Assembly: GCA_964372415.1 (NCBI GenBank)
Contig: CAYJQH010000002.1
Location: 21,803 to 85,802 of the forward strand
Reading direction: 5' to 3'
Origin: an uncultured Gammaproteobacteria bacterium
Lineage (GTDB): Bacteria > Patescibacteriota > Patescibacteriia > UBA9934
DNA length: 64,000 nucleotides
The first letter of the stretch is position 1. Every line of letters starts with the position of its first letter. Shown one piece after another: positions 4,533 to 64,000 of the stretch. The translations under genes were made by a program, and so were the position numbers. The notes under the pieces were generated by a model. It did no database searches, was not told the DNA's origin, and worked only from the letters and a program-made list of their open reading frames with translations.

Positions 4533-5978
4533 TTATGTTACACGTTTCTTCAAAAAGCGAATCGCTTGGTCACGAGTCGTGACCTTACCGTGGTCACGAG
4601 CTTCCTCTAGCATACGTTGCAACTCCCCCACTTTGGGCCCAGGTTCAAGTCCTAGAAGATCGATAATCTCGCCGCCCGTGAGGAGTGGGGTTTTTATGGA
4701 TTCGAGAAGGCTATTTTGAGCGACAGCTTGACGCATGACCTCACCGGGAAGGTACGGAGCGGTTGTCGCATCCTTAACTCCCCGACCACGAACGTCGGCC
4801 TCGGTGACTTTCAAATATACCTCGAATGACGTTTCGCCGAGTCGACGGAGCAGTCGACGCACTGCATACACGTAAGATTCGTCATTCAAGTGACCGAGTT
4901 GGAGTTCGCGATACAACATTGAAGGCTTAAGATGATCTTTAACGATTCTTACCACGGAATCCTCGATCTCCCGACCAAAAGTAAACTTTTTAAGCAAACT
5001 CCGCGTCGGCTTCTCGCCTGCCTCCTCGTGGCCACGCGAACGTATTCGACCATCAATAATTGCTGTCGTTGTTGCCTTGCCTAGGTCATGACACAAGGCG
5101 CCTAACATTACCGTGAGCTGGTCTTCGAGGGTCAACTGACGATCCAAAATTAGCTTTGCGGCCTGATCGATAACCATCAGGCTATGAGTCCAAACGTCCC
5201 CCTCGGGGTGCCATTCAGGTTCCTGGTCTGTAGTCTTTAGAACAAACAGTTCTGGATAATATTTTTCGATAATCCCCAAAGCCCACATCAAACGAAAACC
5301 CACCGAAGGTAGCGTGGCTTTCAACAAAAGCTTACGCCATTCGTCGCTCACTCGTTCTTTAGGTAATTCGTTTAGGTCACCACGTTCGATCATTTGTGTC
5401 ATGAGTGCGAATGTCTTGTCTTCAAGGGTAAAGCCGAGGCGAGCCGCAAGTTGAATACCGCGAAAAACCCGTAAGGGATCTTCCTGAAAAGTCGCCGTGT
5501 CAACAACTTGCAAAACTTTTGCTTCAAGGTGAACCTGACCCTGATAAGGGTCATGAAGAACTTCCGTTAGAGGATCAAGACTTATGGCATTGACCGTGAA
5601 GTCCCGCCGGCGAGCCGCCTCACGAAACGACATTTCGGGCGCGCTCTCGGTGACAAAGCCCCTGTGTCCCTTGCCAACTTTAGACTCTCGGCGCGGCGTG
5701 CCGATGTCTATTTCGTATTCATCTGAATACACTTTCAGAATCCCAAATGACGAACCAACAAGATCAACTCGCGGGAACATTTCTTTCACAACCGAGTGAA
5801 GCTTGTCGGGGTGAACGCCGTAAACTTCGAGGTCAATGTCTTTTACTTCTTTACCGAGCAGTCGATCGCGCACATAGCCGCCAACCAAAAGCGCCCGCGG
5901 AGTCACGGGTGCATAAGTAGCATCTGGCTCAAGCTCGGCGATGCGTTTGGCAAACTCGAGAATTGCTTTGGGAAACAT
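4533..5978 (-). CDS. cca: CCA-adding tRNA nucleotidyltransferase (class II, with HD domain)
   Basis: GGYVRDRLLG polymerase-beta head motif, then an HD domain (HDLGK); 481 aa. Confidence 0.85.
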   Translation of the reverse strand: MFPKAILEFAKRIAELEPDATYAPVTPRALLVGGYVRDRLLGKEVKDIDLEVYGVHPDKLHSVVKEMFPRVDLVGSSFGILKVYSDEYEIDIGTPRRESKVGKGHRGFVTESAPEMSFREAARRRDFTVNAISLDPLTEVLHDPYQGQVHLEAKVLQVVDTATFQEDPLRVFRGIQLAARLGFTLEDKTFALMTQMIERGDLNELPKERVSDEWRKLLLKATLPSVGFRLMWALGIIEKYYPELFVLKTTDQEPEWHPEGDVWTHSLMVIDQAAKLILDRQLTLEDQLTVMLGALCHDLGKATTTAIIDGRIRSRGHEEAGEKPTRSLLKKFTFGREIEDSVVRIVKDHLKPSMLYRELQLGHLNDESYVYAVRRLLRRLGETSFEVYLKVTEADVRGRGVKDATTAPYLPGEVMRQAVAQNSLLESIKTPLLTGGEIIDLLGLEPGPKVGELQRMLEEARDHGKVTTRDQAIRFLKKRVT

Positions 5979-9049: not shown

Positions 9050-9481
9050 TTAAATACCCATTCCTCCCAATTGTTCAGCGATCGCTGTTGAATCCTCCTC
9101 GGCCTGTTTGGCGTAAGCCTCCCAGGTCGTCTTGTCCCATAGTTCCAAACGCGTCTGAACACCGACCATGATCACTTCTTTCCGTAGTTTTGCGAACTCT
9201 CGCAAATACTCCGGCACAATAAACCTTCCTTGCTTATCAAGCTCAACAGCCATAGCGCCAGCGAGCATAAAGCGCGCAAAAGCCCTAGAGTTGGCTTGCC
9301 CCAGGGGCAAACTAGCAATTTTTTCGGCCAGTTTCCCCCACTCCTCTTTAGGGAGCAAGAAAAGTGAAGCGTCGAGACCCCGCGTCACAACTGCCCCGTT
9401 CGCGAAGGTCTCACGCAACTTCACCGGAACGGCGAGCCGCCCCTTATCGTCGATGGTGATTTGGTATTCGCCAATGAGCAT
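9050..9481 (-). CDS. mraZ: Transcriptional regulator MraZ
   Basis: 143 aa with two MraZ/SpoVT-AbrB repeats (DDKGRLAVP…; DKQGRFIVP…). Confidence 0.85.
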   Translation of the reverse strand: MLIGEYQITIDDKGRLAVPVKLRETFANGAVVTRGLDASLFLLPKEEWGKLAEKIASLPLGQANSRAFARFMLAGAMAVELDKQGRFIVPEYLREFAKLRKEVIMVGVQTRLELWDKTTWEAYAKQAEEDSTAIAEQLGGMGI

Positions 9482-9543: not shown

Positions 9544-9809
9544 AAGGGGAAGTTTCCCGAAATTCGGACACCATTATTTGCTGCATGACTACGTTGCGGA
9601 ACTCAGATTTTTTCCTTCCGTACGGTTTAAGTACGCCTCAAAAAATCTTCCCCGCGCCTTGCCCTGCAGCAAATACTGGCGTCCTCTGTTGAACAACAGA
9701 ATAATCAGCACACCCCACTTTGTGCCGCTGAGCACCACTTTACACCATTATTTTACCAACCCAAACCAAAAACCACCTTTTCTGTGGATAAAATTTACTT
9801 TAACCTAAT

Positions 9810-20995: not shown

Positions 20996-21024
20996 TTGAA
21001 ATTTTTCTCAACTTCAGCTATCAT
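20996..21024 (+). promoter_or_regulatory. Candidate sigma70-like promoter (TTGAAA-17-TATCAT) upstream of the tRNA-Gln leader element
   Basis: Hexamers read directly from the sequence with a 17-nt spacer. It lies ~45 nt upstream of the conserved element at 21055. Confidence 0.35.
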
Positions 21025-21054
21025 GATTACAATTTTTAACAAGAAAACGTATTA

Positions 21055-21169
21055 AGTTTCGTCAGTTACGAGGAGGAGACGAGTAAGGGCGAGGCGTACT
21101 GATAAGTACGGTGAGTCCGACGGAGTCGACGACGAAGTAAATGGCGAAACTTGGATACGTTTTCTATAC
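21055..21169 (+). ncRNA. Conserved tRNA-abutting element, copy 1 (candidate structured leader or ncRNA)
   Basis: Shares the blocks CGAGGAG…GAGGCGTAC-loop-GTACGGTGA…CCGGAGTCG…ACTTGGATA…TAC with 34156-34307 and 26277-26369, and ends exactly at the tRNA-Gln 5' end. The hairpin stem covaries between copies (GTACT/AGTAC versus GTAGT/ACTAC). Confidence 0.5.
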
Positions 21170-21243
21170 TCCGGGATCGTCTAAGGGCAGGACAGCGGCC
21201 TTTGAAGCCGTGAATCTTGGTTCGAATCCAAGTCCCGGAACCA
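21170..21243 (+). tRNA. tRNA-Gln (anticodon TTG), CCA encoded
   Basis: Manual cloverleaf: acceptor TCCGGGA/TCCCGGA, anticodon loop CTTTGAA, T-arm CTTGG-TTCGAAT-CCAAG. Confidence 0.85.
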
Positions 21244-21280: not shown

Positions 21281-21417
21281 AGTTTAAGAATTTAGTATTC
21301 GAGACGAGTTTGGGTGAATGGGGAAGATTTTTCCGAAGCGTAGTTCATGCTACGGTGAGGAAAAATCGGGGCCCCATGAGGCCAAAATTGGCCGAATAAT
21401 AAATTCTCCAAAAAGAA

Positions 21418-21465: not shown

Positions 21466-23025
21466 TTAGAGGTCGTCGAGATCGTTCGACATGTCCTCGA
21501 CCGGCACGGCTTCGTCTTCGACGAAGTCAACCGAGGTGGCCATGGTCCGCCGGATGGCGGTCTCCACAGCCTCGGCGATCTCCTCGTTTGAGAGCAGGGA
21601 CGGACGCTGCGGGTGCGACAGCGACCCGTTCAGCAACATGCCCGCCTCGACGAAGAAATACCAGTGCTGCGCCGGCTCCGGCAGATCTCGGCCGGCCGCC
21701 TCGCCATTATGGAAGTTGTCGATGATCCGCCGAACGTCAGACACGAGGTCAGCATGATCGATCCTGACCTCGGACCAACCGGCGCGTCGGGCCTCGGCGA
21801 GAGCGATCTCCTCGGCGATCTCCCAGATCTGCTGCTTGTTGTCATCGGACGTGAAGACGCTCACGTTGCCGCTCGATCGACGGATGACGACCACCTGAGC
21901 CTGATGCACGCTCCGAAGCCACGAGCTCATCTTTCGGAGATTCGTCTCGGCGAAGGCCACTCGCACCCCAGAAATCTGGCGCAAGAGGCCGTTATTTTCC
22001 TGGAAGGATTGTGCGCATTCCTCTTGAAACTCGCGAGCACTCGCCAAGTAGCAGTTGAAGATCTTGAAGACCTTCCGGCCAAGCTCCTCCGGGGACATCT
22101 TGCCCCAAATGTTCAAAGCCGTGACCACGGAGTCGAGCTCGAACGGCAACTGCTTGCGGTCCGGCTCGCGGTACCGCTTGAGCTCCCTTAGAAGGTAGCG
22201 CAAGAGCTTGGCCTCACGATCCTCCACCCTCTTGAAGTTGAGGCCAAAGAACTTGGCCACCTCGTCCGCCGTCGTGGACGGCGGAAAGTGTCCGCCTTCA
22301 ATATCCACGAAGATGGTTCGCGGATTCTCCAGGTACTCTCTCAGGGTTTCCGCGTCCGCGTAGACGAGCTGCGGCTCGTTCAGATACCGCCCGACGATCC
22401 AAGCCTTGGCCAATCCATTCAAGGTGGCGTAGGCCGGAACCACGATAGTCGGTCGACGGAGCTTGCGCATGGCTTCGGCCGTCATCGGCTCGGAAGCCGT
22501 AGACAGAGCGAGGGGCACAGTGAGCGGTCGCGCCATGGGCTGACAGCTCGCGCCATAAAGATGCGCATTGACCACGGCCTCGATCCAGTTGAAGACCCAC
22601 AAGTCGTCGACCTTCTGGTCCTTGCCCCACCATTCGAGCGTCTTGACCACCTCCCCCCATTCGAGGCGAGTTTGTCCGGACACTGCACCCTGGTCATCCT
22701 TGCGCGTGTCAGCGCGGCGAATTTCCGAAAGCAGCGTCTTGTACTCGGATCTGTCGAACAGTCCAAGTTCCTTGGCGGTCAGAGTGGCGGCGCACTCGCC
22801 GGGCAATCGGCCATCCAGCCGGTGCTCGTCAAACATTCCGCCACCAATGCCGATCAGGGCCACCGTGGAGTCACCAAGAAAGGTGCGCTTGGCGCGCTCC
22901 TCATCCCAGAACTCCACCGTGGCTTCAGGATTGGCCCGGCGGATGAGCGCCGCGGCCACGTGCTCGTCGGCATGTGCCCCTCGGTGGGAAACGGCCAGCC
23001 TGAGCTTGAGCGGATCGAGAGCCAT
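21466..23025 (-). CDS. GC-rich hypothetical protein with an N-terminal MYG1/UPF0160-like metal-dependent hydrolase motif and an acidic C-terminal tail
   Basis: 519 aa. N-terminal VSHRGAHADEH…IGIGGGMFDEHR resembles the HxGxFHADE…GG.YD..HH pattern of the MYG1 family. AGGAG lies 8 nt upstream of the ATG. GC content is much higher than in the neighbouring genes. Confidence 0.45.
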   Translation of the reverse strand: MALDPLKLRLAVSHRGAHADEHVAAALIRRANPEATVEFWDEERAKRTFLGDSTVALIGIGGGMFDEHRLDGRLPGECAATLTAKELGLFDRSEYKTLLSEIRRADTRKDDQGAVSGQTRLEWGEVVKTLEWWGKDQKVDDLWVFNWIEAVVNAHLYGASCQPMARPLTVPLALSTASEPMTAEAMRKLRRPTIVVPAYATLNGLAKAWIVGRYLNEPQLVYADAETLREYLENPRTIFVDIEGGHFPPSTTADEVAKFFGLNFKRVEDREAKLLRYLLRELKRYREPDRKQLPFELDSVVTALNIWGKMSPEELGRKVFKIFNCYLASAREFQEECAQSFQENNGLLRQISGVRVAFAETNLRKMSSWLRSVHQAQVVVIRRSSGNVSVFTSDDNKQQIWEIAEEIALAEARRAGWSEVRIDHADLVSDVRRIIDNFHNGEAAGRDLPEPAQHWYFFVEAGMLLNGSLSHPQRPSLLSNEEIAEAVETAIRRTMATSVDFVEDEAVPVEDMSNDLDDL

Positions 23026-24061: not shown

Positions 24062-24904
24062 TTAACCAAGATGATAACGACCGTGTTCAGCATCAGCCAC
24101 AATCTTGCCGTCATTTAAAGTAATAACTCGCTTACGAAGCCCATTCACGATATCTCTGTCGTGAGTCACAAGAACGATAGTTGTTCCTACCTCGTGGATG
24201 CGTTTAAAGAGCTCAAGAATATCACGAGCCGTCAAGGTATCGAGGTTTCCTGTCGGCTCATCAGCTATGATGATCTTTGGCCTGTGCACCAAGGCACGGG
24301 CCACTGAGACGCGTTGTTGTTCACCACCAGAAAGCTGTCTTGGGTAACGATGCAATTTATCAGCTAAACCAACGATCTTCATGACTTGCGGCACCACCTG
24401 CCTGATACGGCTCGTTGCTGCTCCGGCAACTTCCAAAGCAAAAGCTACGTTTTCGTAAGCGGTTTTTTTGGGTAATAGTTTATAGTCCTGAAAAACCACA
24501 CCAATCTGACGACGTAAAATTGGTACTTCGTGATACCTGAGACGTGAAATATCCCAATCCCCAACCGAAATCTGCCCATGGGTTGGCTGTTCTTCCGCAA
24601 AAAGAAGTTTAGCTAAAGTTGTTTTTCCGGATCCGCTCGTACCAACAATCGACACGAACTCGCCAGGTTTAATATGAAAACTTACGCCATCCAAAGCGCG
24701 CGTGTCTGGTTGGTAGATTTTACTCACGTTTTTAAACGTAATCACTCGGGCAGTATAGCATGTACGACCGTTGACTAAAAATGAATTTTCAACTAGACTG
24801 GGGCGTCGTTTCTTGGAGGTAATGTTGGATAACGACTCAGAGATCATTCTCGTGAAAAGCAAGTTCGGAGACCGTGAGATCTCCCGGGAAAACGTGGATT
24901 CCAT
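24062..24904 (-). CDS. ftsE: Cell division ATP-binding protein FtsE
   Basis: GTSGSGKTTL…LSGGEQQRVSVAR…[11 protein letters not shown]. The first ~50 aa of the ORF are probably not translated. A GTG at 24745 (VITFKNVSKIY) is the likelier start. Confidence 0.8.
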   Translation of the reverse strand: MESTFSREISRSPNLLFTRMISESLSNITSKKRRPSLVENSFLVNGRTCYTARVITFKNVSKIYQPDTRALDGVSFHIKPGEFVSIVGTSGSGKTTLAKLLFAEEQPTHGQISVGDWDISRLRYHEVPILRRQIGVVFQDYKLLPKKTAYENVAFALEVAGAATSRIRQVVPQVMKIVGLADKLHRYPRQLSGGEQQRVSVARALVHRPKIIIADEPTGNLDTLTARDILELFKRIHEVGTTIVLVTHDRDIVNGLRKRVITLNDGKIVADAEHGRYHLG

Positions 24905-25976
24905 TCTGGATACGCGGATTTTCCGGATTGTCGGTAAGCGGGAGTGGGTGGTAAAGAGCGGTTTCTACGACCGGCCCTTCATCTGCTACAACCGCAGTCA
25001 AGATAGGCACCATGCCTACCAAAACCCGCACACCGCATTTCGAGCCACGGTTTACGCCGATGGCTTCGAGGGGTACGGCGCCGACGACATTCCGGAAGGC
25101 GACCTGCAAAAGCTCAAGGCCTGGCTCGAGCGTCACCGCTACCTGCAGCTCCTTGTGTCCGACGACATGATGCGCGGGCCGGAGCGGGCCATGTTCAACA
25201 GGCTGTGCATCGAGCTCGCGACCAAGATGGGTCGGCCGGTGAACGAGGTCAAACGCGAAATCCTGACTCAGACCATCATTGCCGCCACCCTTGAGGGTGA
25301 AGCGGCAGTCGAGAGCTTGGGCGAGACGATCGGGCTTGATCGGCGACGGATTGCAGAAATCACCGCCATCGGTCGAAACGTCAACTGGCACGGGGCCCTC
25401 ATCGTGCGTGAGATCAGAGAACAAGAAGATCTCATGACGGCCTGCGGCGCCGAGCTGAGCGCCCTTCTCGAAGCCCGTTCAACGCTCTTCGACGACGCGG
25501 CCAGACGCGAAAGTCACCTGAGGAACGTCAAAAACATCGCAACGCTCCTCGGCACGATCAAGGACCGCCCATGGCGAAGCCTGGCACAACGCGACATTCA
25601 GGACCTCGAACAGTACGTCGGCTATGGCTCAACGGGTGTCGAAGCCCTGATCCAGGCCGAACTCTTCCTCCGTCGACCGGTAGCCGCGCACAAGTGCTTC
25701 TACCTGTCGCGCCAGATCAACGTAGTGCTCTATCGGCTGGCCATGGCCGAAGCGAGACAAGGCAACATCCGCTCCGCTCTCCTTGATCGGGGCTACGCCG
25801 AACTCGTCGCCATTCGGGACTCCATCGATCCCGCGACGGGCGAAATCCTGCAGCGCAACCCGCTCTGGAGCGCCCTCGGTCGCATCAACGATGCGCTCCA
25901 TATCTGGCGTGCGAGCAGCAGCCACTTCGAGGACGTTCGCAACCTCCTCCGCCACGCCGCTGCCACGTTCGGCTAG
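24771..25976 (+). CDS. GC-rich hypothetical protein (401 aa), no recognisable domain
   Basis: Long ORF whose codon usage shifts to high GC after about 24880. Followed by a strong terminator. Its start overlaps the dubious N-terminal extension of ftsE on the other strand. Confidence 0.5.
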   Translation: MTKNEFSTRLGRRFLEVMLDNDSEIILVKSKFGDREISRENVDSILDTRIFRIVGKREWVVKSGFYDRPFICYNRSQDRHHAYQNPHTAFRATVYADGFEGYGADDIPEGDLQKLKAWLERHRYLQLLVSDDMMRGPERAMFNRLCIELATKMGRPVNEVKREILTQTIIAATLEGEAAVESLGETIGLDRRRIAEITAIGRNVNWHGALIVREIREQEDLMTACGAELSALLEARSTLFDDAARRESHLRNVKNIATLLGTIKDRPWRSLAQRDIQDLEQYVGYGSTGVEALIQAELFLRRPVAAHKCFYLSRQINVVLYRLAMAEARQGNIRSALLDRGYAELVAIRDSIDPATGEILQRNPLWSALGRINDALHIWRASSSHFEDVRNLLRHAAATFG

Positions 25977-25984
25977 GCATCTCC

Positions 25985-26017
25985 CGGCTCGGACCCCTTG
26001 GTCCGAGCTGCTTTTTA
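25985..26017 (+). terminator. Rho-independent terminator of the 401-aa gene
   Basis: GCTCGGACC-CCTT-GGTCCGAGC followed by TGCTTTTT. Confidence 0.7.
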
Positions 26018-26034
26018 TGTTCGACCTCCCCTCA

Positions 26035-26100
26035 CCCCTCCTTCTTAAGGAGGGGACTGCTCACTGTTTCACCCTTTATAAGGGGGAATGAAGGGGGTCG
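26035..26100. repeat. GC-rich palindromic hairpin element (CCCCTCCTTCTTAAGGAGGGG … CCCTTTATAAGGG … GGGGGAATGAAGGGGG)
   Basis: A near-identical CCCCCTCCATTTATGGAGGGGG…GGGGGTTGGGGGAGG element is found at 62405-62440. Both lie just beyond the terminator of a GC-rich gene. Confidence 0.6.
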
Positions 26101-26107
26101 AACACAA

Positions 26108-26135
26108 AAAGCACATGCCTTCTGGCACGTGCTTT
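26108..26135. terminator. Bidirectional terminator hairpin (GCACATGCC-TTCT-GGCACGTGC, A-run on one side, T-run on the other)
   Basis: Serves the plus-strand 401-aa gene region and the minus-strand tRNA-Thr. Confidence 0.6.
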
Positions 26136-26211
26136 TGGAGCCACTTCCGGGATTTGAACCCGGGACCTCTGCTTTACGAAAGCATTGCTCTACCGCTGAG
26201 CTAAAGTGGCC
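26136..26211 (-). tRNA. tRNA-Thr (anticodon CGT), CCA encoded
   Basis: Reverse complement is GGCCACTTTAGCTCAGCGGTAGAGC…TTCGTAA…GGTCCCGGGTTCAAATCCCGGAAGTGGCTCCA. Confidence 0.85.
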
Positions 26212-26230
26212 TAGAAAACGTATAACCAAA

Positions 26231-26259
26231 TTATCGACCATGAGAAAACTGATTTAAAC
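26231..26259 (-). promoter_or_regulatory. Candidate promoter of tRNA-Thr (TTTAAA-17-GATAAT on the minus strand)
   Basis: Read directly from the sequence. The promoter-proximal sequence TTGGTTATACGTTTTCTA resembles the 3' end of the tRNA-abutting element copies. Confidence 0.35.
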
Positions 26260-26276
26260 GGCCAAATACTAAAAAC

Positions 26277-26369
26277 AGCGAGGAGCGAAGTGAGGCGTAG
26301 TTAATACTACGGTGAACGAGCACCGGAGTCGCGACAACGCAGTTGGTTATTTGAATCAGTTTTTTGTAC
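26277..26369 (+). ncRNA. Conserved tRNA-abutting element, copy 3 (plus strand, ending at the 3' CCA end of the minus-strand tRNA-Gly)
   Basis: AGCGAGGAGCGAAGTGAGGCGTAGTTAATACTACGGTGAACGAGCACCGGAGTCGCGACAACG…TTGGTTA…TTTTTTGTAC. The hairpin carries compensatory changes relative to copies 1 and 2. Confidence 0.45.
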
Positions 26370-26444
26370 TGGAGCAGGAGACGGGACTCGAACCCGCGAC
26401 CCTTTGCTTGGGAAGCAAATGTTCTACCACTGAACTACTCCTGC
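26370..26444 (-). tRNA. tRNA-Gly (anticodon CCC), CCA encoded
   Basis: Reverse complement is GCAGGAGTAGTTCAGTGGTAGAAC…TTCCCAA…GGGTCGCGGGTTCGAGTCCCGTCTCCTGCTCCA. Confidence 0.85.
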
Positions 26445-26593
26445 GTTTTAAGCGCAAAATATATAGCACGATTTTACTATCCAGTCTAGACTAAGTCTCG
26501 GGTTTCTGCTAACCTTTAGCCGCATCGTGATCCCCATGATGCATCAAGCCAACCCTTTCCACTACAGCGCTCCCCGCGCTGAGCGGAGAGTCC

Positions 26594-27124
26594 ATGATCC
26601 TCGAAACCAGGGCGGTAATCCCCCGCCTTTCGCTCCAGTCGCGACTCCCCCGTGCAGCCAGCATCATCCGCCCCAAGCTGACCGATGATGGCAATCTGAT
26701 CTTGATCCTCAACCCCGAGGGTCTGATCCGCATCCATCTCCGCCGTGAGAACGTCGACAATCAGGCTCTCTACGAATGCCTGGTGGTCGACGAAGAAGGC
26801 CGGCCCCTCGAGCTCTTCTTCGGACGCGGCATCTGCGACGCACTCCTCAACGCCTGTGCCCACCTCGTGGAACACGGCGCCGTCATCCTCCCCGTGAGCG
26901 ACGAAGTGCGCGGCAAGTACATCTCGAACGAACGGCATCACAAGTCGGTCCGCCTGAACTTCGACGACACGAAGGACCTGTCCGTCATCGAGGTGATCCG
27001 GCTCCGACTCAACACCTACGAGGTCAAGATCTTCGACGAGCCGCTCCCGGGATTCTTCTCGAACCCCGTGCTCGGCGTCATCGGGGGCCTGTATTACCTC
27101 AAGGCGAAGGGCTACCTCATGTAG
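26594..27124 (+). CDS. GC-rich hypothetical protein (176 aa)
   Basis: ATG preceded by GGAGAG. GC-rich codon usage. Followed by a nested GC hairpin and T-run terminator. The antisense ORF (26516..27169) has an Asp/Glu/Gly/Val-rich composition typical of an artefact. Confidence 0.5.
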   Translation: MILETRAVIPRLSLQSRLPRAASIIRPKLTDDGNLILILNPEGLIRIHLRRENVDNQALYECLVVDEEGRPLELFFGRGICDALLNACAHLVEHGAVILPVSDEVRGKYISNERHHKSVRLNFDDTKDLSVIEVIRLRLNTYEVKIFDEPLPGFFSNPVLGVIGGLYYLKAKGYLM

Positions 27125-31397: not shown

Positions 31398-33920
31398 TTA
31401 AGATTGTAACAGACGAAGCTTGGTAAACTCCATGAGAAGTAATTTTACCGTTAGACCGGCTAAGAATATGGCGAATACAGTTAGTCCCGGCCAGCCCAGA
31501 TCCAGAGTTACGGTGAGACCGGGAATGAGTAGTGGCAGAAAGAGCAATAGGCCACTCACTAAAAGCGCCATTGAGAGTAGCGGATTGTTGAAAATTCGCA
31601 CCTTCCATAAAGGCTGCCGTAAAACACGAAGAACATAAATGCTAACCAAGGAATCAAGACCAAGAGCCAGAAAAACCATGGTTCTAGCTATATTCTCACT
31701 GAAGCCGAGTTCAATCGCCGCGACGTACAAAGTAACTAACATCACAACCGACAGTCCGCCAATAAACAGCGTCCACTTACCTAATTCTGAACCGATAATC
31801 GACGACCCTTTTGGTCGAGGATATTCCTTCATAATGCCTGGTTCAGCTGGCTCTGTAGCGAGCGCCATGGCGGGCAAACCGTCGGTAACTAAATTAATCC
31901 ACAGAATATGAATCGGTCCTAACGGCAAAGGAAAGCCTAAGATCAGAACGGCAGCAATAAGTGCTACCTCGCTTAAGCTAAAAGTTAACAGGTAAACTGT
32001 TACTTTGCGAATATTATCGTAAATAGTGCGACCCTCGCGTATAGCATCAATGATCACCTGAACATTACTTTCAAGAAGCACCATATCGGCAGTCTCTTTA
32101 GCGACATCAGTGCCGCTCCCGACGGCAATGCCGATTTCGGCGGCACGCAAAGCGGGAGCGTCGTTCACTCCATCCCCAGTCATAGCGACCGAGAATCCAC
32201 GTCGCTGAAAGGCTTTTACAATTCGCACCTTTTGCTCAGGCAAAACTCGCGCATAAACCCCAATATCTGCCACCAAACGTTCTAGCTCGGCATCCGATAA
32301 TGTCGTCATTTCGGTACCGGTAATTACTCTCTCACCGTTTGTGAGTAAACCGATATCGCGAGCCACCCGCTCGGCGGTTGCGGGATGATCACCGGTCACC
32401 ATAACTACGCGGATGCCAGCATTCATTGCTTGAGCAACAGTTTGTCGAGCTTCCGGTCGGAGCGGATCAGCAAGACCAATGATGCCTAGCGCAGTAAAAT
32501 CAACCATGGCCTTGACTGAAAATTCTTGCGGTACGTCATGTTGTCGCTTAGCTAGTAAAAAAAGCCGCAACCCACGCTTGGCCAAACTGTCGATTTCCGT
32601 TTCCAGACGAATTCTTGTGGCATCATCAATATCGCACCGCGCCAAGACTACCTCAGGGGCTCCCATGAGATACCAAACTACCCCGCCGTCTTCTTGAACG
32701 GCTCTAGCCGAAAATTTTCGGACTGAATCAAAAGGCAACTCAGCAATAATTTGCGCCTCCGTAAAAATACTTTCGGCCGATAAGTACTTTTGAAAGGCTG
32801 TCTGACTGGCGCTTGCCAAATCACCCTGACCACGCACAAAAAGAGATAAAGCGTGATTGATCTCTGACTTTGTCACATAATCCCTCACTTTAACCTCGAC
32901 AACAGTCATTTCGCCGGTCGTGAGCGTCCCGGTTTTATCCACACAAACTACATTAACCTGCCCCAGTGTTTCGGCGGCTAAAAGCCGTCGTACCAAAGCT
33001 TTTTTTCTAAGCATCCGTTGCATACCAGCAGTCAAAATAACGGTTAAGGCAACGCCTAAACTCTCAGGCACCACAGCTACCGCGAGGGCAGCTGCAATGG
33101 CCAAGAGGCTGGTAGTTTCAATACCACGCCAAGCGCCAAGAATAACCACAAAAGCCGCAGACAATAAGGCGATGCCAATAATCAGGCGCGACAAACCGTA
33201 AAGTTCCCTCTGTAGTGGAGTGGGCTCGGCTTGAATATTCGTCACCATACCTGCCACGCGACCAAACTCGGTGGCTGAGCCAGTTGTGACAATTACTGCC
33301 TCACCTATTCCAGCCATCACAGTTGTTCCTGCAAAAACCATTGAGGCTCGCTCAGTTATCGAGGTTTCATTAGACACCGGAAATATTTGCTTACCAACTT
33401 CGCTCGATTCTCCAGTTAAAGTTGACTCATTGACCGCTAAAAAATTCGCCACGATCAAACGGCTGTCAGCTGTAATCCTATCTCCGGCTGAAAGAACAAC
33501 TATATCGCCGGGCACCAATTCGATAGCTGATAGTCGAATCAGCTTCCCCTCGCGACGCACGGTAACCTGATATTCAAGCTTCTGCTCCAAGGCAGCCAAG
33601 GCGTGATCAGCGCGATACTCTTGGTAAAAACCAAGCAGCGTGTTACCAAGTAGAATAGCTAGGATCAAACTAGCATCAATACTCTCCCCCAGGGTAACGC
33701 TCACGGCCGCGGCGATGGCCAAGATAAAAACTAAGGGACTTTTGAGTTGACGTACTAAGTACGTAACTGTCGTCACGCGTCGTGGCTTAGGCAGTTCATT
33801 CTTGCCGTAATCCAACAGTCGCCGCTTCGCCTCCTCGGCGCTCAGCCCATCTCGGCTCACCCCCTGAGCCCGCATCACCTCCTGAACCGGCATCGCGTGC
33901 CAAGGCAAAACCTCCACCAT
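31398..33920 (-). CDS. Cation-transporting P-type ATPase (Ca2+/Mg2+-type, P2/P3-like)
   Basis: 840 aa with DKTGTLT, TGDGVNDAPAL and 10 predicted TM helices. Has the cation_ATPase N-terminus. Confidence 0.85.
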   Translation of the reverse strand: MVEVLPWHAMPVQEVMRAQGVSRDGLSAEEAKRRLLDYGKNELPKPRRVTTVTYLVRQLKSPLVFILAIAAAVSVTLGESIDASLILAILLGNTLLGFYQEYRADHALAALEQKLEYQVTVRREGKLIRLSAIELVPGDIVVLSAGDRITADSRLIVANFLAVNESTLTGESSEVGKQIFPVSNETSITERASMVFAGTTVMAGIGEAVIVTTGSATEFGRVAGMVTNIQAEPTPLQRELYGLSRLIIGIALLSAAFVVILGAWRGIETTSLLAIAAALAVAVVPESLGVALTVILTAGMQRMLRKKALVRRLLAAETLGQVNVVCVDKTGTLTTGEMTVVEVKVRDYVTKSEINHALSLFVRGQGDLASASQTAFQKYLSAESIFTEAQIIAELPFDSVRKFSARAVQEDGGVVWYLMGAPEVVLARCDIDDATRIRLETEIDSLAKRGLRLFLLAKRQHDVPQEFSVKAMVDFTALGIIGLADPLRPEARQTVAQAMNAGIRVVMVTGDHPATAERVARDIGLLTNGERVITGTEMTTLSDAELERLVADIGVYARVLPEQKVRIVKAFQRRGFSVAMTGDGVNDAPALRAAEIGIAVGSGTDVAKETADMVLLESNVQVIIDAIREGRTIYDNIRKVTVYLLTFSLSEVALIAAVLILGFPLPLGPIHILWINLVTDGLPAMALATEPAEPGIMKEYPRPKGSSIIGSELGKWTLFIGGLSVVMLVTLYVAAIELGFSENIARTMVFLALGLDSLVSIYVLRVLRQPLWKVRIFNNPLLSMALLVSGLLLFLPLLIPGLTVTLDLGWPGLTVFAIFLAGLTVKLLLMEFTKLRLLQS

Positions 33921-34155
33921 AGTTGGGAGTATTTTATCATCAAAAACCTCCTAAAATTTATCCCGGCGTTGTCGCGTCGCCATGCTCGGACTCGCCGTAG
34001 CTCTACTACGCCTCGTCCTGCGCTATCGTCGCTCCTAGCCGGAATAAATTTCTATGAGGTTTTTGGTACACCTACTCTACTCTTTTCAAAATCTTAAATT
34101 TTTGCTATCCTTTGCCCGATATTTCATTAGTCTGTTGAGAGAAAACCTAATAAGG

Positions 34156-34307
34156 TTCGTCAGTTTTACAGATTATTGCGTTGGCCTACTAAGTTCGGCG
34201 AGGTTCAAGGAGCAACGAGGACCGACTGAGGCGTACTTGAAAAGTACGATGAAGGAGGCCCGGAGTTGCACGAAGAAGATCGTCGAACTTGGGTAGGCCA
34301 AAGGTAC
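34156..34307 (+). ncRNA. Conserved tRNA-abutting element, copy 2 (upstream of tRNA-Lys)
   Basis: TTCGTCAGTT…AACGAGGACCGACTGAGGCGTACTTGAAAAGTACGATGAAGGAGGCCCGGAGTTGCACGAAG…CGAACTTGGGTA…GGTAC, ending at the tRNA +1. It has a GAAA-loop hairpin and a 50-nt insertion in its 5' part. Confidence 0.5.
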
Positions 34308-34382
34308 GCGCTGGTAGCTCAGTGGTAGAGCAAAGGCCTTTTAAGCCTGTGGTCGTGGGTTCGATCCCCACCCGGCGCACCA
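34308..34382 (+). tRNA. tRNA-Lys (anticodon TTT), CCA encoded
   Basis: GCGCTGGTAGCTCAGTGGTAGAGC…CTTTTAA…GTGGGTTCGATCCCCACCCGGCGCACCA. Confidence 0.85.
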
Positions 34383-62520: not shown

Positions 62521-64000
62521 TTAGAAGACGAGCGAGTTGCCGGTCACTGGTAGGTTGTCTACCAAGTGAGCACCGTAGCGTTCCTGAGCGCCGGTTGAGG
62601 TGGAGCCATCGGAGAGCGTGAAGCTACCAATGGACGTTACACCGTCATCCTGCCAGAGGAAGGCACCAGGTACACGGTCGACGTTGTCACCCGTGTCGTT
62701 GAGGCTACCTGTGTCTGGCGTTGTGGCCAAGTAGCCGCGGACTACCGTGAGGGTTGTGCCGCCATCTACAACGACCAGCATCTTTTCGTCATCCGAGCCA
62801 CAACCGTTATCGGCGGTGTCCATACAGAGCACATCACCCAAGGCGTAGGTTGAAGCTGCGCCCATGCTGAGTATTGTATCGGTACCTGTGACGTTGTCCT
62901 CTGCGAGCTCATCAGCTGCAAGGAAGCTAGCGTCAGCCACGATCGGATCGGTGGCCATCTCAACTTGGAAGGTATCGTCATTAGCCGCTGAAGCGAGCGA
63001 TAGGTCAACCCACAACGCATACATGTAGGTCTGTCCCTTCGGCACTACTTCCTCGGTCGTGAGCGACAAACGCTGCCAAGCAAGATCGGTTGAGGCGGTC
63101 GTACAGTCAGCACCGGTTGCGGTGAGACCAGTCCAATCGGCATCCACATCAAGCGCCAAGGCCGTGCCCTGTTCGCTCATGTTGTAGAAGTCGAAATCCT
63201 CGTCGTTCATTGAGGTGGCGTCAGCATCCGTATCACAGTTCTCCCACAAGGTCGGCGTGCCGGTGTTGTCGGTCGCGCTAATCTTGAAGAGAATGTTTTT
63301 GAAGATCACGTCTTCGTTTGAAGAAGCCGCAATGTTGAAGCGGAAGACTTCCTGGTCGCCAGGCACCTTAGCGCCTGTCGGACTTGAGGAATTGAGACTG
63401 ATGGTTGGCTTGGTTTCGCGGACTACAAACTGGGCAATGCCGTCCGTAGCGTAAGCGTCATCACCAACCACTGTAGCATCGTCGTCATCAAGCGTGGTGC
63501 CAGAACCAGCACCTACGGCCTGGAAGTTGTCATCGTTTGTGGTGTCCGCAAAGAGACCCATGCGGATTTCTTCATTGGAACGCGCGTTACCACCCGAATC
63601 ACGATCCGTGAGAGGAGTAGTTACGTAGACGTTCACAATACCCGGAGTTCCAGTCTTAACGTACATGTCAAGATCCGAGAACTTGGCTTCGTTGCCGGTC
63701 ATCGAGACCGACTTCGAACCAGTCGTACCATCGGCCTTCGGGAAGTCGATCTTCACCGTTGAAATGTTATTAGCGTAAGACGATGAGTTCGCGGTACCGG
63801 TGTCATCTTCAGCCGCCTCTTCCGAGAAGGTGAGGATATTCACATCGAAGTTTTCATTCGTAGCGGTGAAGCGGAAGGTCGAAACCTTCACGTCAGTCGA
63901 GCTCGTAAGAATGAAGTCCGGCGATGGCGTGCTCGAATCAGCAGCCATAGTGAGCGAACCGGCATCGTTGACACTGACCACGTTGGTCGGGCTTGTGCCG
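62521..64000 (-). CDS. Large GC-rich Thr/Asp/Gly-rich secreted surface protein, C-terminal part; the 5' end runs off the window
   Basis: Open minus-strand frame of 486 or more aa, low-complexity acidic and T/S-rich, with GC-rich codon usage. Its stop is at 62521. Confidence 0.55.
   Translation of the reverse strand, partial: GTSPTNVVSVNDAGSLTMAADSSTPSPDFILTSSTDVKVSTFRFTATNENFDVNILTFSEEAAEDDTGTANSSSYANNISTVKIDFPKADGTTGSKSVSMTGNEAKFSDLDMYVKTGTPGIVNVYVTTPLTDRDSGGNARSNEEIRMGLFADTTNDDNFQAVGAGSGTTLDDDDATVVGDDAYATDGIAQFVVRETKPTISLNSSSPTGAKVPGDQEVFRFNIAASSNEDVIFKNILFKISATDNTGTPTLWENCDTDADATSMNDEDFDFYNMSEQGTALALDVDADWTGLTATGADCTTASTDLAWQRLSLTTEEVVPKGQTYMYALWVDLSLASAANDDTFQVEMATDPIVADASFLAADELAEDNVTGTDTILSMGAASTYALGDVLCMDTADNGCGSDDEKMLVVVDGGTTLTVVRGYLATTPDTGSLNDTGDNVDRVPGAFLWQDDGVTSIGSFTLSDGSTSTGAQERYGAHLVDNLPVTGNSLVF

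Follow-up and report, generated by a model that had tools for sequence, protein, structure and literature searches.

A conserved hairpin element abutting the 3' end of an opposite-strand tRNA-Gly in a Patescibacteria genome

The tRNA-Gly/tRNA-Thr locus

The DNA analysed here, referred to below as the window, is a stretch of 64,000 nt from contig CAYJQH010000002.1 (GenBank assembly GCA_964372415.1, positions 21,803 to 85,802 of the forward strand), which the GTDB lineage places among the Patescibacteriota. It contains several copies of an imperfect hairpin, designated element E, the third of which (c3) lies on the plus strand between two minus-strand tRNA genes. The spacer and its borders carry the following features:

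26107..26136, minus strand: terminator hairpin 3' of tRNA-Thr, inverted repeat I4 (AAAAGCACATGCC / GGCACGTGCTTTT)
26136..26210, minus strand: tRNA-Thr(CGT), by ARAGORN and Rfam
26211..26229, minus strand: remnant of a sense-strand E, the former 5' leader of tRNA-Thr, namely the last 19 nt of the 3' arm (TTGGTTATACGTTTTCTAG)
26230..26258, minus strand: promoter-like TTTAAA-17-GATAAT just 5' of tRNA-Thr that extends into the 5' arm of c3 (a candidate from the consensus scan only)
26243..26365, plus strand: c3, an imperfect hairpin of 120 nt, by fold and covariance models
26282..26325, plus strand: core of c3, with a full-length model match at 26259-26350 (covariance models R1 and R2)
26370..26444, minus strand: tRNA-Gly(CCC) with encoded CCA, by ARAGORN and Rfam (tRNA model, 73.1 bits)
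26460..26488, minus strand: promoter of tRNA-Gly, TAGACT, 17 nt, (TGC)TATATA, read from the sequence, with the -35 and extended -10 boxes kept in eight relatives

The 3' end of c3 is 4 nt from the CCA end of tRNA-Gly: the stretch 26277-26369 terminates in ...CAGTTTTTTGTAC and is followed, from 26370, by TGG, which is complementary to the encoded CCA. A first-pass annotation of this stretch had put the element on the plus strand, directly against the CCA end of a minus-strand tRNA-Gly, and had concluded that it cannot be the leader of that tRNA. These points agree with the present results. The motif GCGTA-N5-12-TACGRTGA lies on the plus strand, which folds at −42.3 kcal/mol (z −4.2) compared with −30.6 (z −2.3) for the complement. 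A 5' leader would be expected on the strand of its tRNA, with the promoter on one side and the 5' end of the tRNA on the other; c3, in contrast, is located on the other strand and points to the 3' end of tRNA-Gly. Besides, tRNA-Gly has the promoter of its own that the annotation had proposed, and across the eight relatives it takes the form TAGAC/TGGAC, about 17 nt, and TGnTATAAAT.

As for tRNA-Thr, it does keep only part of an element, as had been claimed, but the coordinates offered for this tRNA (26212-26276) belong to the region upstream of it. Its remnant TTGGTTATACGTTTTCTAG compares with CTTGGATACGTTTTCTATAC in c1, the leader of tRNA-Gln, and with the intact leader of the related contig L121 (relatives and other loci are given by such L numbers), which reads ...CTTGGATACGTTTTCTAT followed by tRNA-Thr. 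The third copy is likewise real; its full hairpin, however, spans 26243-26365, and the window holds six copies, two of them on the minus strand, rather than three.

The 3' end of c3 carries a hairpin and a U6 tract, and its basal stem (GAAAAC...GTTTTC) makes both strands read as a hairpin followed by a U-tract. The intrinsic-terminator scan of 25900-26600 calls c3 on neither strand; the base of the stem is AU-rich. The antisense strand of tRNA-Gly folds with a 7-bp acceptor-like stem, and the Rfam tRNA model has no listed plus-strand match over this gene (E-value up to 10).

Copies of E in the window

The motif occurs four times in the window, always on the plus strand (0.01 occurrences expected), and each time it caps an imperfect hairpin, 120-135 nt in length, for which the folding z-scores range from −4.2 to −9.7. 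Covariance models add the two minus-strand copies, c5 and c6. According to ARAGORN and Rfam, there are four tRNA genes: Gln (21170-21243, plus), Thr (26136-26210, minus), Gly (26370-26444, minus), and Lys (34308-34382, plus). The five copies other than c3 are as follows:

9566..9684, minus strand: c6, upstream of mraZ (9050-9481, minus strand); R2 30.3 bits, fold
21042..21165, plus strand: c1, 5' leader of tRNA-Gln, after a promoter at 20996-21033; −58.4 kcal/mol, z −9.7, R2 95.2 bits, promoter and terminator scan
21287..21407, plus strand: c2, 3' of the tRNA-Gln terminator, with no tRNA downstream; −55.7 kcal/mol, z −8.7, R1 37.5 bits
33941..34065, minus strand: c5, divergent from c4, its end 20 nt upstream of the start codon (ATG, 33920) of a P-type cation ATPase gene; R1 27.8 and R2 46.6 bits, fold, start codon checked
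34177..34306, plus strand: c4, 5' leader of tRNA-Lys; −61.8 kcal/mol, z −7.5, R1 45.0 and R2 39.8 bits

The highest score of the core model R1 in the window belongs to c3 (48.5 bits, E-value 2.6e-12). Copy c2 precedes the GC-rich terminator hairpin of a 519-aa gene, and a c2-like copy adjoins the 3' end of tRNA-Lys in L121. The assignment of mraZ near c6 rests on a reading of the translation, not on a family search. The window copies differ greatly, with a mean column identity of 68%, and recent transposition is therefore not indicated.

Fold and strand specificity

Element E is 110-190 nt long, with the core 5'-GAGG-CGUASU-loop-ASUACG-RUGA-3' at its tip. The apical stem of 6 bp (CGUASU/ASUACG) shows compensatory C-G to G-C swaps; below it lie a symmetric 4x4 internal loop (5'-GAGG / 5'-RUGA) and, further down, a module with purine-rich internal loops. 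Covariation was assessed in an alignment of 30 sequences of the lineage-specific subtype, with shuffled and slid-partner controls. In this alignment 94.1% of the cells are paired, compared with 77.7% after shuffling, and the number of double-change cells is 126 versus 37.5, while slid partners pair in only 25-46%.

The two strands of the hairpin are not equivalent. Outside the core, 54 diverse members have 204 G·U pairs versus 25 A·C mismatches on the E strand, 89 purine-purine versus 14 pyrimidine-pyrimidine mismatches, and 30 GA/GA loops versus 0 of the complement type, and 50 of them fold more stably on the E strand than on the complement. This asymmetry argues that one strand works as a folded single strand. 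Ten antisense copies, i.e., those on the strand opposite to the adjoining tRNA, show the same tendency: G·U versus A·C is 20 to 2 on the E strand and 7 to 8 on the complement, the E strand is stabler in all ten, and the unpaired GAGG and RUGA nucleotides are retained. Since a hairpin selected in the tRNA-sense transcript would give the opposite bias, it is the plus strand of c3 that is favoured as the acting one, either as RNA or as single-stranded DNA.

An operator in double-stranded DNA for a dimeric protein was considered, but it does not agree with a loop that ranges from 3 to 6 nt in length or with half-sites that undergo paired, compensatory changes, and the idea was rejected. Compared by eye only with the K-turn, sarcin-ricin, and loop E motifs, the symmetric 4x4 loop fits none of them cleanly, and no such claim is made.

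Occurrence and mobility of E in other genomes

An exact scan for the core pattern in one genome per species, for which about 26 chance matches are expected by our own estimate, yields at least 118 loci among the matches listed, nearly all of which fold as long hairpins. Among these matches, the core is found in Bryobacterales (dozens per genome), Nitrospirota, Deltaproteobacteria/Deferrimicrobium, Gammaproteobacteria, Bdellovibrionales, Pyramidobacter (including P. piscolens), Anaerospora (including A. hongkongensis DSM 15969), and several classes of Patescibacteria. Copy c3 is a genuine member of this strand-specific hairpin family, the core of which occurs in many phyla.

Known families do not account for E. 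Rfam 15 has no non-tRNA match at the gathering score in the window, and nothing relevant for c3 or c1 at E-values up to 10 or for five other loci at E-values up to 1. A description of E was not found in the full-text literature, the core sequence itself included as a query. REP and REPIN sequences mobilised by RAYT, like palindromic elements derived from IS200/IS605, are recognised by a conserved 5' GTAG head or subterminal hairpins and a linked Y1 transposase, whereas GTAC is as frequent as GTAG in the core of E. No recurrent transposase was found near E, genome-wide co-occurrence not being checked, and clustering of the open reading frames (ORFs) within 3 kb of the 118 listed loci gave no recurrent family (reverse transcriptase, TnpB/IscB, transposase, or integrase), the largest clusters being spurious ORFs that overlap the repeat itself. 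A phage origin was rejected, as the collection of viral contigs has no match to the core pattern and the plasmid collection none to a Bryobacterales copy.

In Bryobacterales, E forms the body of a unit of about 190 bp that resembles a miniature inverted-repeat transposable element (MITE), with sharp ends (GCCCGCTTTTCTCA...TGAGAAATGCGGGC) flanked by (C)TA...TA(G). Sharp ends with such flanks are the signature of MITEs of the IS630/Tc1 type. As for the features typical of MITEs, terminal inverted repeats are represented by the imperfect palindrome of the whole E and the sharp ends of the Bryobacterales units. The (C)TA...TA(G) flanks in Bryobacterales may represent a target-site duplication; no consistent duplication surrounds the window copies. 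Near-identical copies within one genome, absent from the window, are present in Bryobacterales OZ250179.1, which has more than 15 of them (L010, L013-L015, L018, L019, L023, and others). Some OZ250179.1 copies, e.g., L077, have a 13-nt insertion beside the core.

Turnover is also seen among the relatives of the window. The tRNA-Lys leader site lacks c4 in L121 and L124, and one type of element precedes tRNA-Gln in the window, tRNA-Thr in L121, and tRNA-Lys in L129, with a fragment of the same type lying before c4. In L121 an antisense E takes the place of the ordinary tRNA-Lys terminator present in L124. The tRNA-Gln leader of L121 (L121:12880-13100) has an extra hairpin of about 55 nt in the apical loop and a GC-rich hairpin in the 3' arm, so the apical loop tolerates large insertions.

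Position and polarity relative to tRNA genes

The Patescibacteria lineage was sampled by a metagenome scan with a subtype-specific pattern (44 loci), to which the window and its syntenic relatives were added. The resulting 488 kb contain 103 tRNAs and 53 distinct E cores, distributed as follows:

34 of 53: a same-strand tRNA starts 51-77 nt after the core, E being its 5' leader (Ile, Arg, Lys, Leu, Thr, Gly, Gln, His, Ala, Glu, Met, Asn, Phe, Val)
9-10 of 53: an opposite-strand tRNA has its 3' end 53-56 nt downstream of the core (six contigs with Gly; Ser in L140 and, it seems, also in L163, where the contig ends within the tRNA; L143 with Leu; L154 with Val)
10 of 53: no adjoining tRNA, the element preceding protein genes (nusA and dnaK, both by N-terminal sequence, an ATPase, mraZ) or nothing recognisable
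0 of 53: only the 5' end of E against a tRNA

Thus, whenever E adjoins a tRNA in this lineage, the order on the E strand is 5'-E-(3-10 nt)-cloverleaf-3', the cloverleaf being either a tRNA or an antisense tRNA. Copy c3 belongs to the minority tail-to-tail type, which comprises about one in five copies. The sense copies are preceded by promoters that have the TGnTATnnT -10 box of this lineage, and they are therefore expected to be transcribed together with their tRNAs.

Two variants were noted in the same sample. At L142:~430-520 and L153:~5040-5130 E is followed by a tRNA-like sequence (GCCGCAGTAGCTCAGTTGGTAGAGCGCGTCC...) that neither ARAGORN nor Rfam calls and that is possibly a tRNA with an interruption or an intron. 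A shorter hairpin (GGATAGACGCAAGTGAGGG...GTCTATC), which keeps the lower module and has no apical core, occurs on the minus strand at L124:8928-9050 and L140:840-960; it occupies the leader position before tRNA-Thr and tRNA-Ser, respectively, and is paired with a full antisense element.

The Gly-Thr spacer in related genomes

Within the Patescibacteria (candidate phyla radiation), the window stands close to Uhrbacteria; its FtsX protein has its best matches in "Patescibacteria group" and Uhrbacteria assemblies. In seven relatives with FtsX 62-78% identical, the gene order is kept: ATPase, murD-like, mur ligase, divIC, rotamase-like, the module of tRNA-Gly and tRNA-Thr, ftsE, ftsX. The contents of the Gly-Thr spacer are as follows:

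Window: antisense copy and the last 19 nt of a sense copy
L121 and L129: antisense E at the 3' end of tRNA-Gly, then sense E at tRNA-Thr
L124: antisense E, then the core-less hairpin
L126 and L127: sense E only
L130: two sense copies
L123 and L128: stem remnants only

The divergent pair is also present in L135 and L155 from the metagenome scan, so that it is intact in L121, L129, L135, and L155, while an antisense E at the 3' end of tRNA-Gly, its core 53-56 nt away, is found in these four contigs, in L124, and in the window. Compared with its relatives, the window therefore retains half of an old pair, and the partial element at tRNA-Thr is a deletion remnant. The tail-to-tail arrangement at tRNA-Gly is old and recurrent, and in the window genome its sense partner has been deleted down to 19 nt.

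The Gly-Thr module is flipped relative to ftsEX in L121, L124, L128, and L130 as compared with the window, L123, L126, and L129, with its internal arrangement unchanged in both orientations. No inverted repeats flank the module beyond the arms of E itself and the terminators. Over the same divergence the intergenic DNA around the conserved promoter is randomised outside the -35 and -10 boxes, and the antisense copies are about 70-80% similar among relatives, as judged by eye; this similarity is thus not explained by neutral drift. A separate observation concerns all three tRNA cassettes (Lys, Gly-Thr, and Gln), which are inverted between the window and L121 while the flanking protein genes remain collinear.

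Three ORFs with a GC content of 60-61% in a genome of about 47% adjoin the tRNA loci: 21466-23025 (minus), 24771-25976 (plus), and 26594-27124 (plus). Searches against Pfam and PADLOC gave no match for any of them. The 519-aa and 401-aa proteins among them have syntenic and equally GC-rich homologues that are 35-44% identical where FtsX is 78% identical, which indicates fast-evolving resident genes rather than recent insertions. A role of these ORFs as mobilising genes was rejected given the lack of Pfam and PADLOC matches and the syntenic homologues in relatives.

Interpretation

The reading that we favour, with an overall probability of roughly 0.45, is that E works in a folded, single-stranded form with a polarity of its own and that c3 is a minority tail-to-tail copy, the survivor of an old pair. 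The folded strand would most likely be RNA. Sense copies would be transcribed from the tRNA promoter and released by the RNase P cut at the tRNA 5' end; c3 would be transcribed from the plus strand, convergently with tRNA-Gly, with a 3' end defined either by its hairpin and U6 tract or through processing at the cloverleaf of the antisense tRNA. In DNA, the copies would spread and turn over by duplication, replacement, and deletion, with transposition of the MITE type in other phyla. The RNA nature of E, the release of sense copies by RNase P, and the plus-strand expression of c3 are inferred. An independently acting plus-strand RNA with the antisense cloverleaf as its 3' signal, one of three explanations offered by the first-pass annotation, is plausible; both the polarity rule and the E-strand-specific folding of antisense copies fit it. 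A wider proposal holds that E is a new class of small structured RNA, the 3' end of which is made by RNase P or another tRNA-end nuclease at the next cloverleaf, with a purine-rich core that binds a conserved partner and with repeated mobilisation, as in the Bryobacterales MITE; taken in full, it seems rather unlikely.

Several results weigh against the favoured reading. The lower module of c3 is degenerate (R2 29.6 bits versus 95.2 for c1), the consensus scan finds no sigma-70-like promoter upstream of c3 on the plus strand, and none is evident upstream of the best antisense copies, those of L124 and L140. Among the matches listed, only 3 of the approximately 118 copies from outside the lineage lie next to a tRNA, and the orientation of E to flanking genes is random; tRNA-dependent formation of the 3' end therefore cannot be general to E. 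Furthermore, gene conversion from sense copies could keep antisense copies E-like without a function of their own. In L124 and L140, however, a strong antisense E (85.6 bits in L124) stands beside a sense hairpin that has no core, so that a local conversion donor is missing.

Gene conversion or replacement is part of an alternative in which c3 is a passenger, a palindromic piece of mobile or duplicative DNA with no function of its own, whose complement ends or insulates the tRNA-Gly transcript, tRNA-Thr having a separate promoter. We regard this as possible but on the doubtful side. Copy c3 does occupy the usual position of a tRNA terminator and, through its GAAAAC...GTTTTC base, offers a hairpin and U-tract on both strands; the promoter-like TTTAAA-17-GATAAT follows on the minus strand, and L135 and L155 have TTGACC-17-TACACT in the central spacer by our own reading. 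The substitution of an antisense E for the tRNA-Lys terminator in L121, the lack of a plus-strand promoter before c3, the two arms of the same type in most pairs, as concerted evolution predicts, and the MITE-like copies of Bryobacterales all point in the same direction. Nevertheless, a terminator role would select pairing on the minus strand, and the wobble bias of antisense copies lies on the E strand, where the unpaired core nucleotides GAGG and RUGA are conserved as well. In addition, the terminator scan does not call c3, L124 and L140 keep their high-scoring antisense copies with no donor nearby, and random insertion leaves the rule that the 3' end faces the tRNA unexplained.

The strand asymmetry is equally compatible with single-stranded DNA, i.e., with a transposase or recombinase that recognises the E hairpin and inserts it 5' of cloverleaf-forming DNA, polarity then arising from insertion and not from RNA processing. 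Presence/absence differences and the swapping of types among tRNA loci fit this mechanism, as do the random orientation to neighbouring genes in other phyla and the cloverleaf in the adjoining E-strand sequence of both arrangements. We nonetheless consider it improbable: no recombinase or HUH gene is consistently near E and none was seen in the examined part of the window, the Bryobacterales copies resemble MITEs of the TA-duplicating, double-strand cut-and-paste kind, the divergence of the window copies speaks against recent transposition, and antisense copies are conserved over long divergence. The remaining two explanations of the first-pass annotation, a local inversion tied to the GC-rich insertions and an orphaned leader whose tRNA was displaced, have very little left in their favour. 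It is true that tRNA cassettes are inverted between relatives with collinear protein genes, and that a leader was indeed lost in the window genome. The lost leader, however, is the sense partner before tRNA-Thr, intact in L121 and L129, and not c3. The comparison of synteny that the annotation had asked for shows the antisense E at the tRNA-Gly 3' end in six contigs and in both module orientations, so the arrangement is not a local accident; it recurs at Ser, Leu, Val, and Lys tRNAs, and the GC-rich ORFs are old and syntenic.

Comparison with known systems

In its small size (110-190 bp), lack of coding capacity, and whole-length imperfect palindrome forming a long hairpin, E is similar to ERIC/IRU, Correia/NEMIS, RUP, BOX, and REPIN sequences. 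It shares with bacterial palindromic repeats and MITEs an intergenic location in both orientations, multiple copies in some genomes, and presence or absence between relatives, and the sharp-ended Bryobacterales units flanked by TA within CTAG are MITE-like in particular. In contrast to palindromic repeats, E has an apical core and a lower module that stay conserved and asymmetric from phylum to phylum, its outer stems covary, G·U pairs and purine mismatches are biased to one strand, and position and polarity relative to tRNAs are stereotyped in one lineage; the window copies, moreover, are old and divergent, unlike recently transposed repeats. What sets E apart from known palindromic repeats is the conservation of the core across phyla together with the polarity at tRNA ends.

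Stable RNAs that are co-transcribed with tRNAs and freed by tRNA processing include the species 1 and 2 RNAs of phage T4 and RNAs from the external spacers of tRNA transcripts in Escherichia coli, for instance 3'ETS-leuZ. A sense E lies similarly between promoter and tRNA, so that RNase P would cut it off as a discrete structured RNA; unlike these RNAs, E can also be found opposite to the tRNA strand, in front of protein genes, and, in other phyla, at a distance from any tRNA. The eukaryotic MALAT1-mascRNA transcript has its 3' end formed by an RNase P cut at a downstream tRNA-like fold. Likewise, a cloverleaf follows within 3-10 nt on the E strand (a tRNA in 34 cases, an antisense tRNA in 9-10), but E is bacterial, its antisense-tRNA cloverleaf is a hypothetical substrate of bacterial RNase P, and Rfam lists no plus-strand tRNA match over tRNA-Gly. 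As for bidirectional intrinsic terminators, E has the A-tract, stem, and U-tract at its base, and both c3 and the L121 copy are in terminator position. However, its stem is four to five times longer, with an AU-rich base and conserved internal loops, it is not called by the scan, and it also lies upstream of tRNAs, where termination would do harm.

Ty3 and the Dictyostelium elements TRE5 and DGLT-A are autonomous retroelements that target tRNA genes via Pol III factors in gene-dense eukaryotes (PMC6101501). What they have in common with E is that selfish or semi-selfish elements accumulate at a set distance from the tRNA genes of a compact genome. In contrast to them, E is a small non-coding bacterial hairpin with no associated enzyme, none being recurrent within 3 kb of the 118 listed loci.

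If E is a functional RNA, it would represent an abundant unannotated family of structured RNAs shared by several phyla; in the strongly reduced genomes of Patescibacteria, where the sampled contigs show it before tRNAs for 14 or more amino acids, it would give a direct lead into the making or control of tRNAs. If it is selfish DNA, it would correspond, in bacteria, to the transposons that target tRNA genes in compact eukaryotic genomes, with the polarity rule unexplained. Either way, 5'-E-(3-10 nt)-cloverleaf-3' is a concrete prediction, and covariance models R1 and R2 can be used for annotation. Long spacers in tRNA operons of this Patescibacteria lineage are not to be taken as assembly errors or inversions.

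Additional observations

Sequestration of a Shine-Dalgarno sequence by c5 was considered and rejected, as AGGAGG in its 3' arm (region 33875-33950, minus strand) lies 7 nt before an ATG at 33940 that opens only a 21-codon ORF, and the ATPase starts at 33920. The short ORF overlaps the ATPase start and may encode a leader peptide or be a chance occurrence. A long GC-rich hairpin of a different kind (GCTCGCCCCTGGTAGGGCGAGC...) precedes the P-type ATPase gene at L123:60-140 and L126:100-170, in the position of c5.

A small separate palindrome lies at 26009-26113 of the window, between the terminators of the 401-aa gene and of tRNA-Thr; its arms (TGCTTTTTATGTTCGACCTCC / GGGGGTCGAACACAAAAAGCA) enclose a C/T-rich and G/A-rich segment (CCCCTCACCCCTCCTTCTTAAGGAGGGGA...). 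Finally, the core model gives a weak match (14.5 bits) with a 22-nt apical insertion at 63082-63135 (plus strand), inside the ORF 62521-63981 (minus strand). The full-length model did not recover it, and it is probably due to chance.

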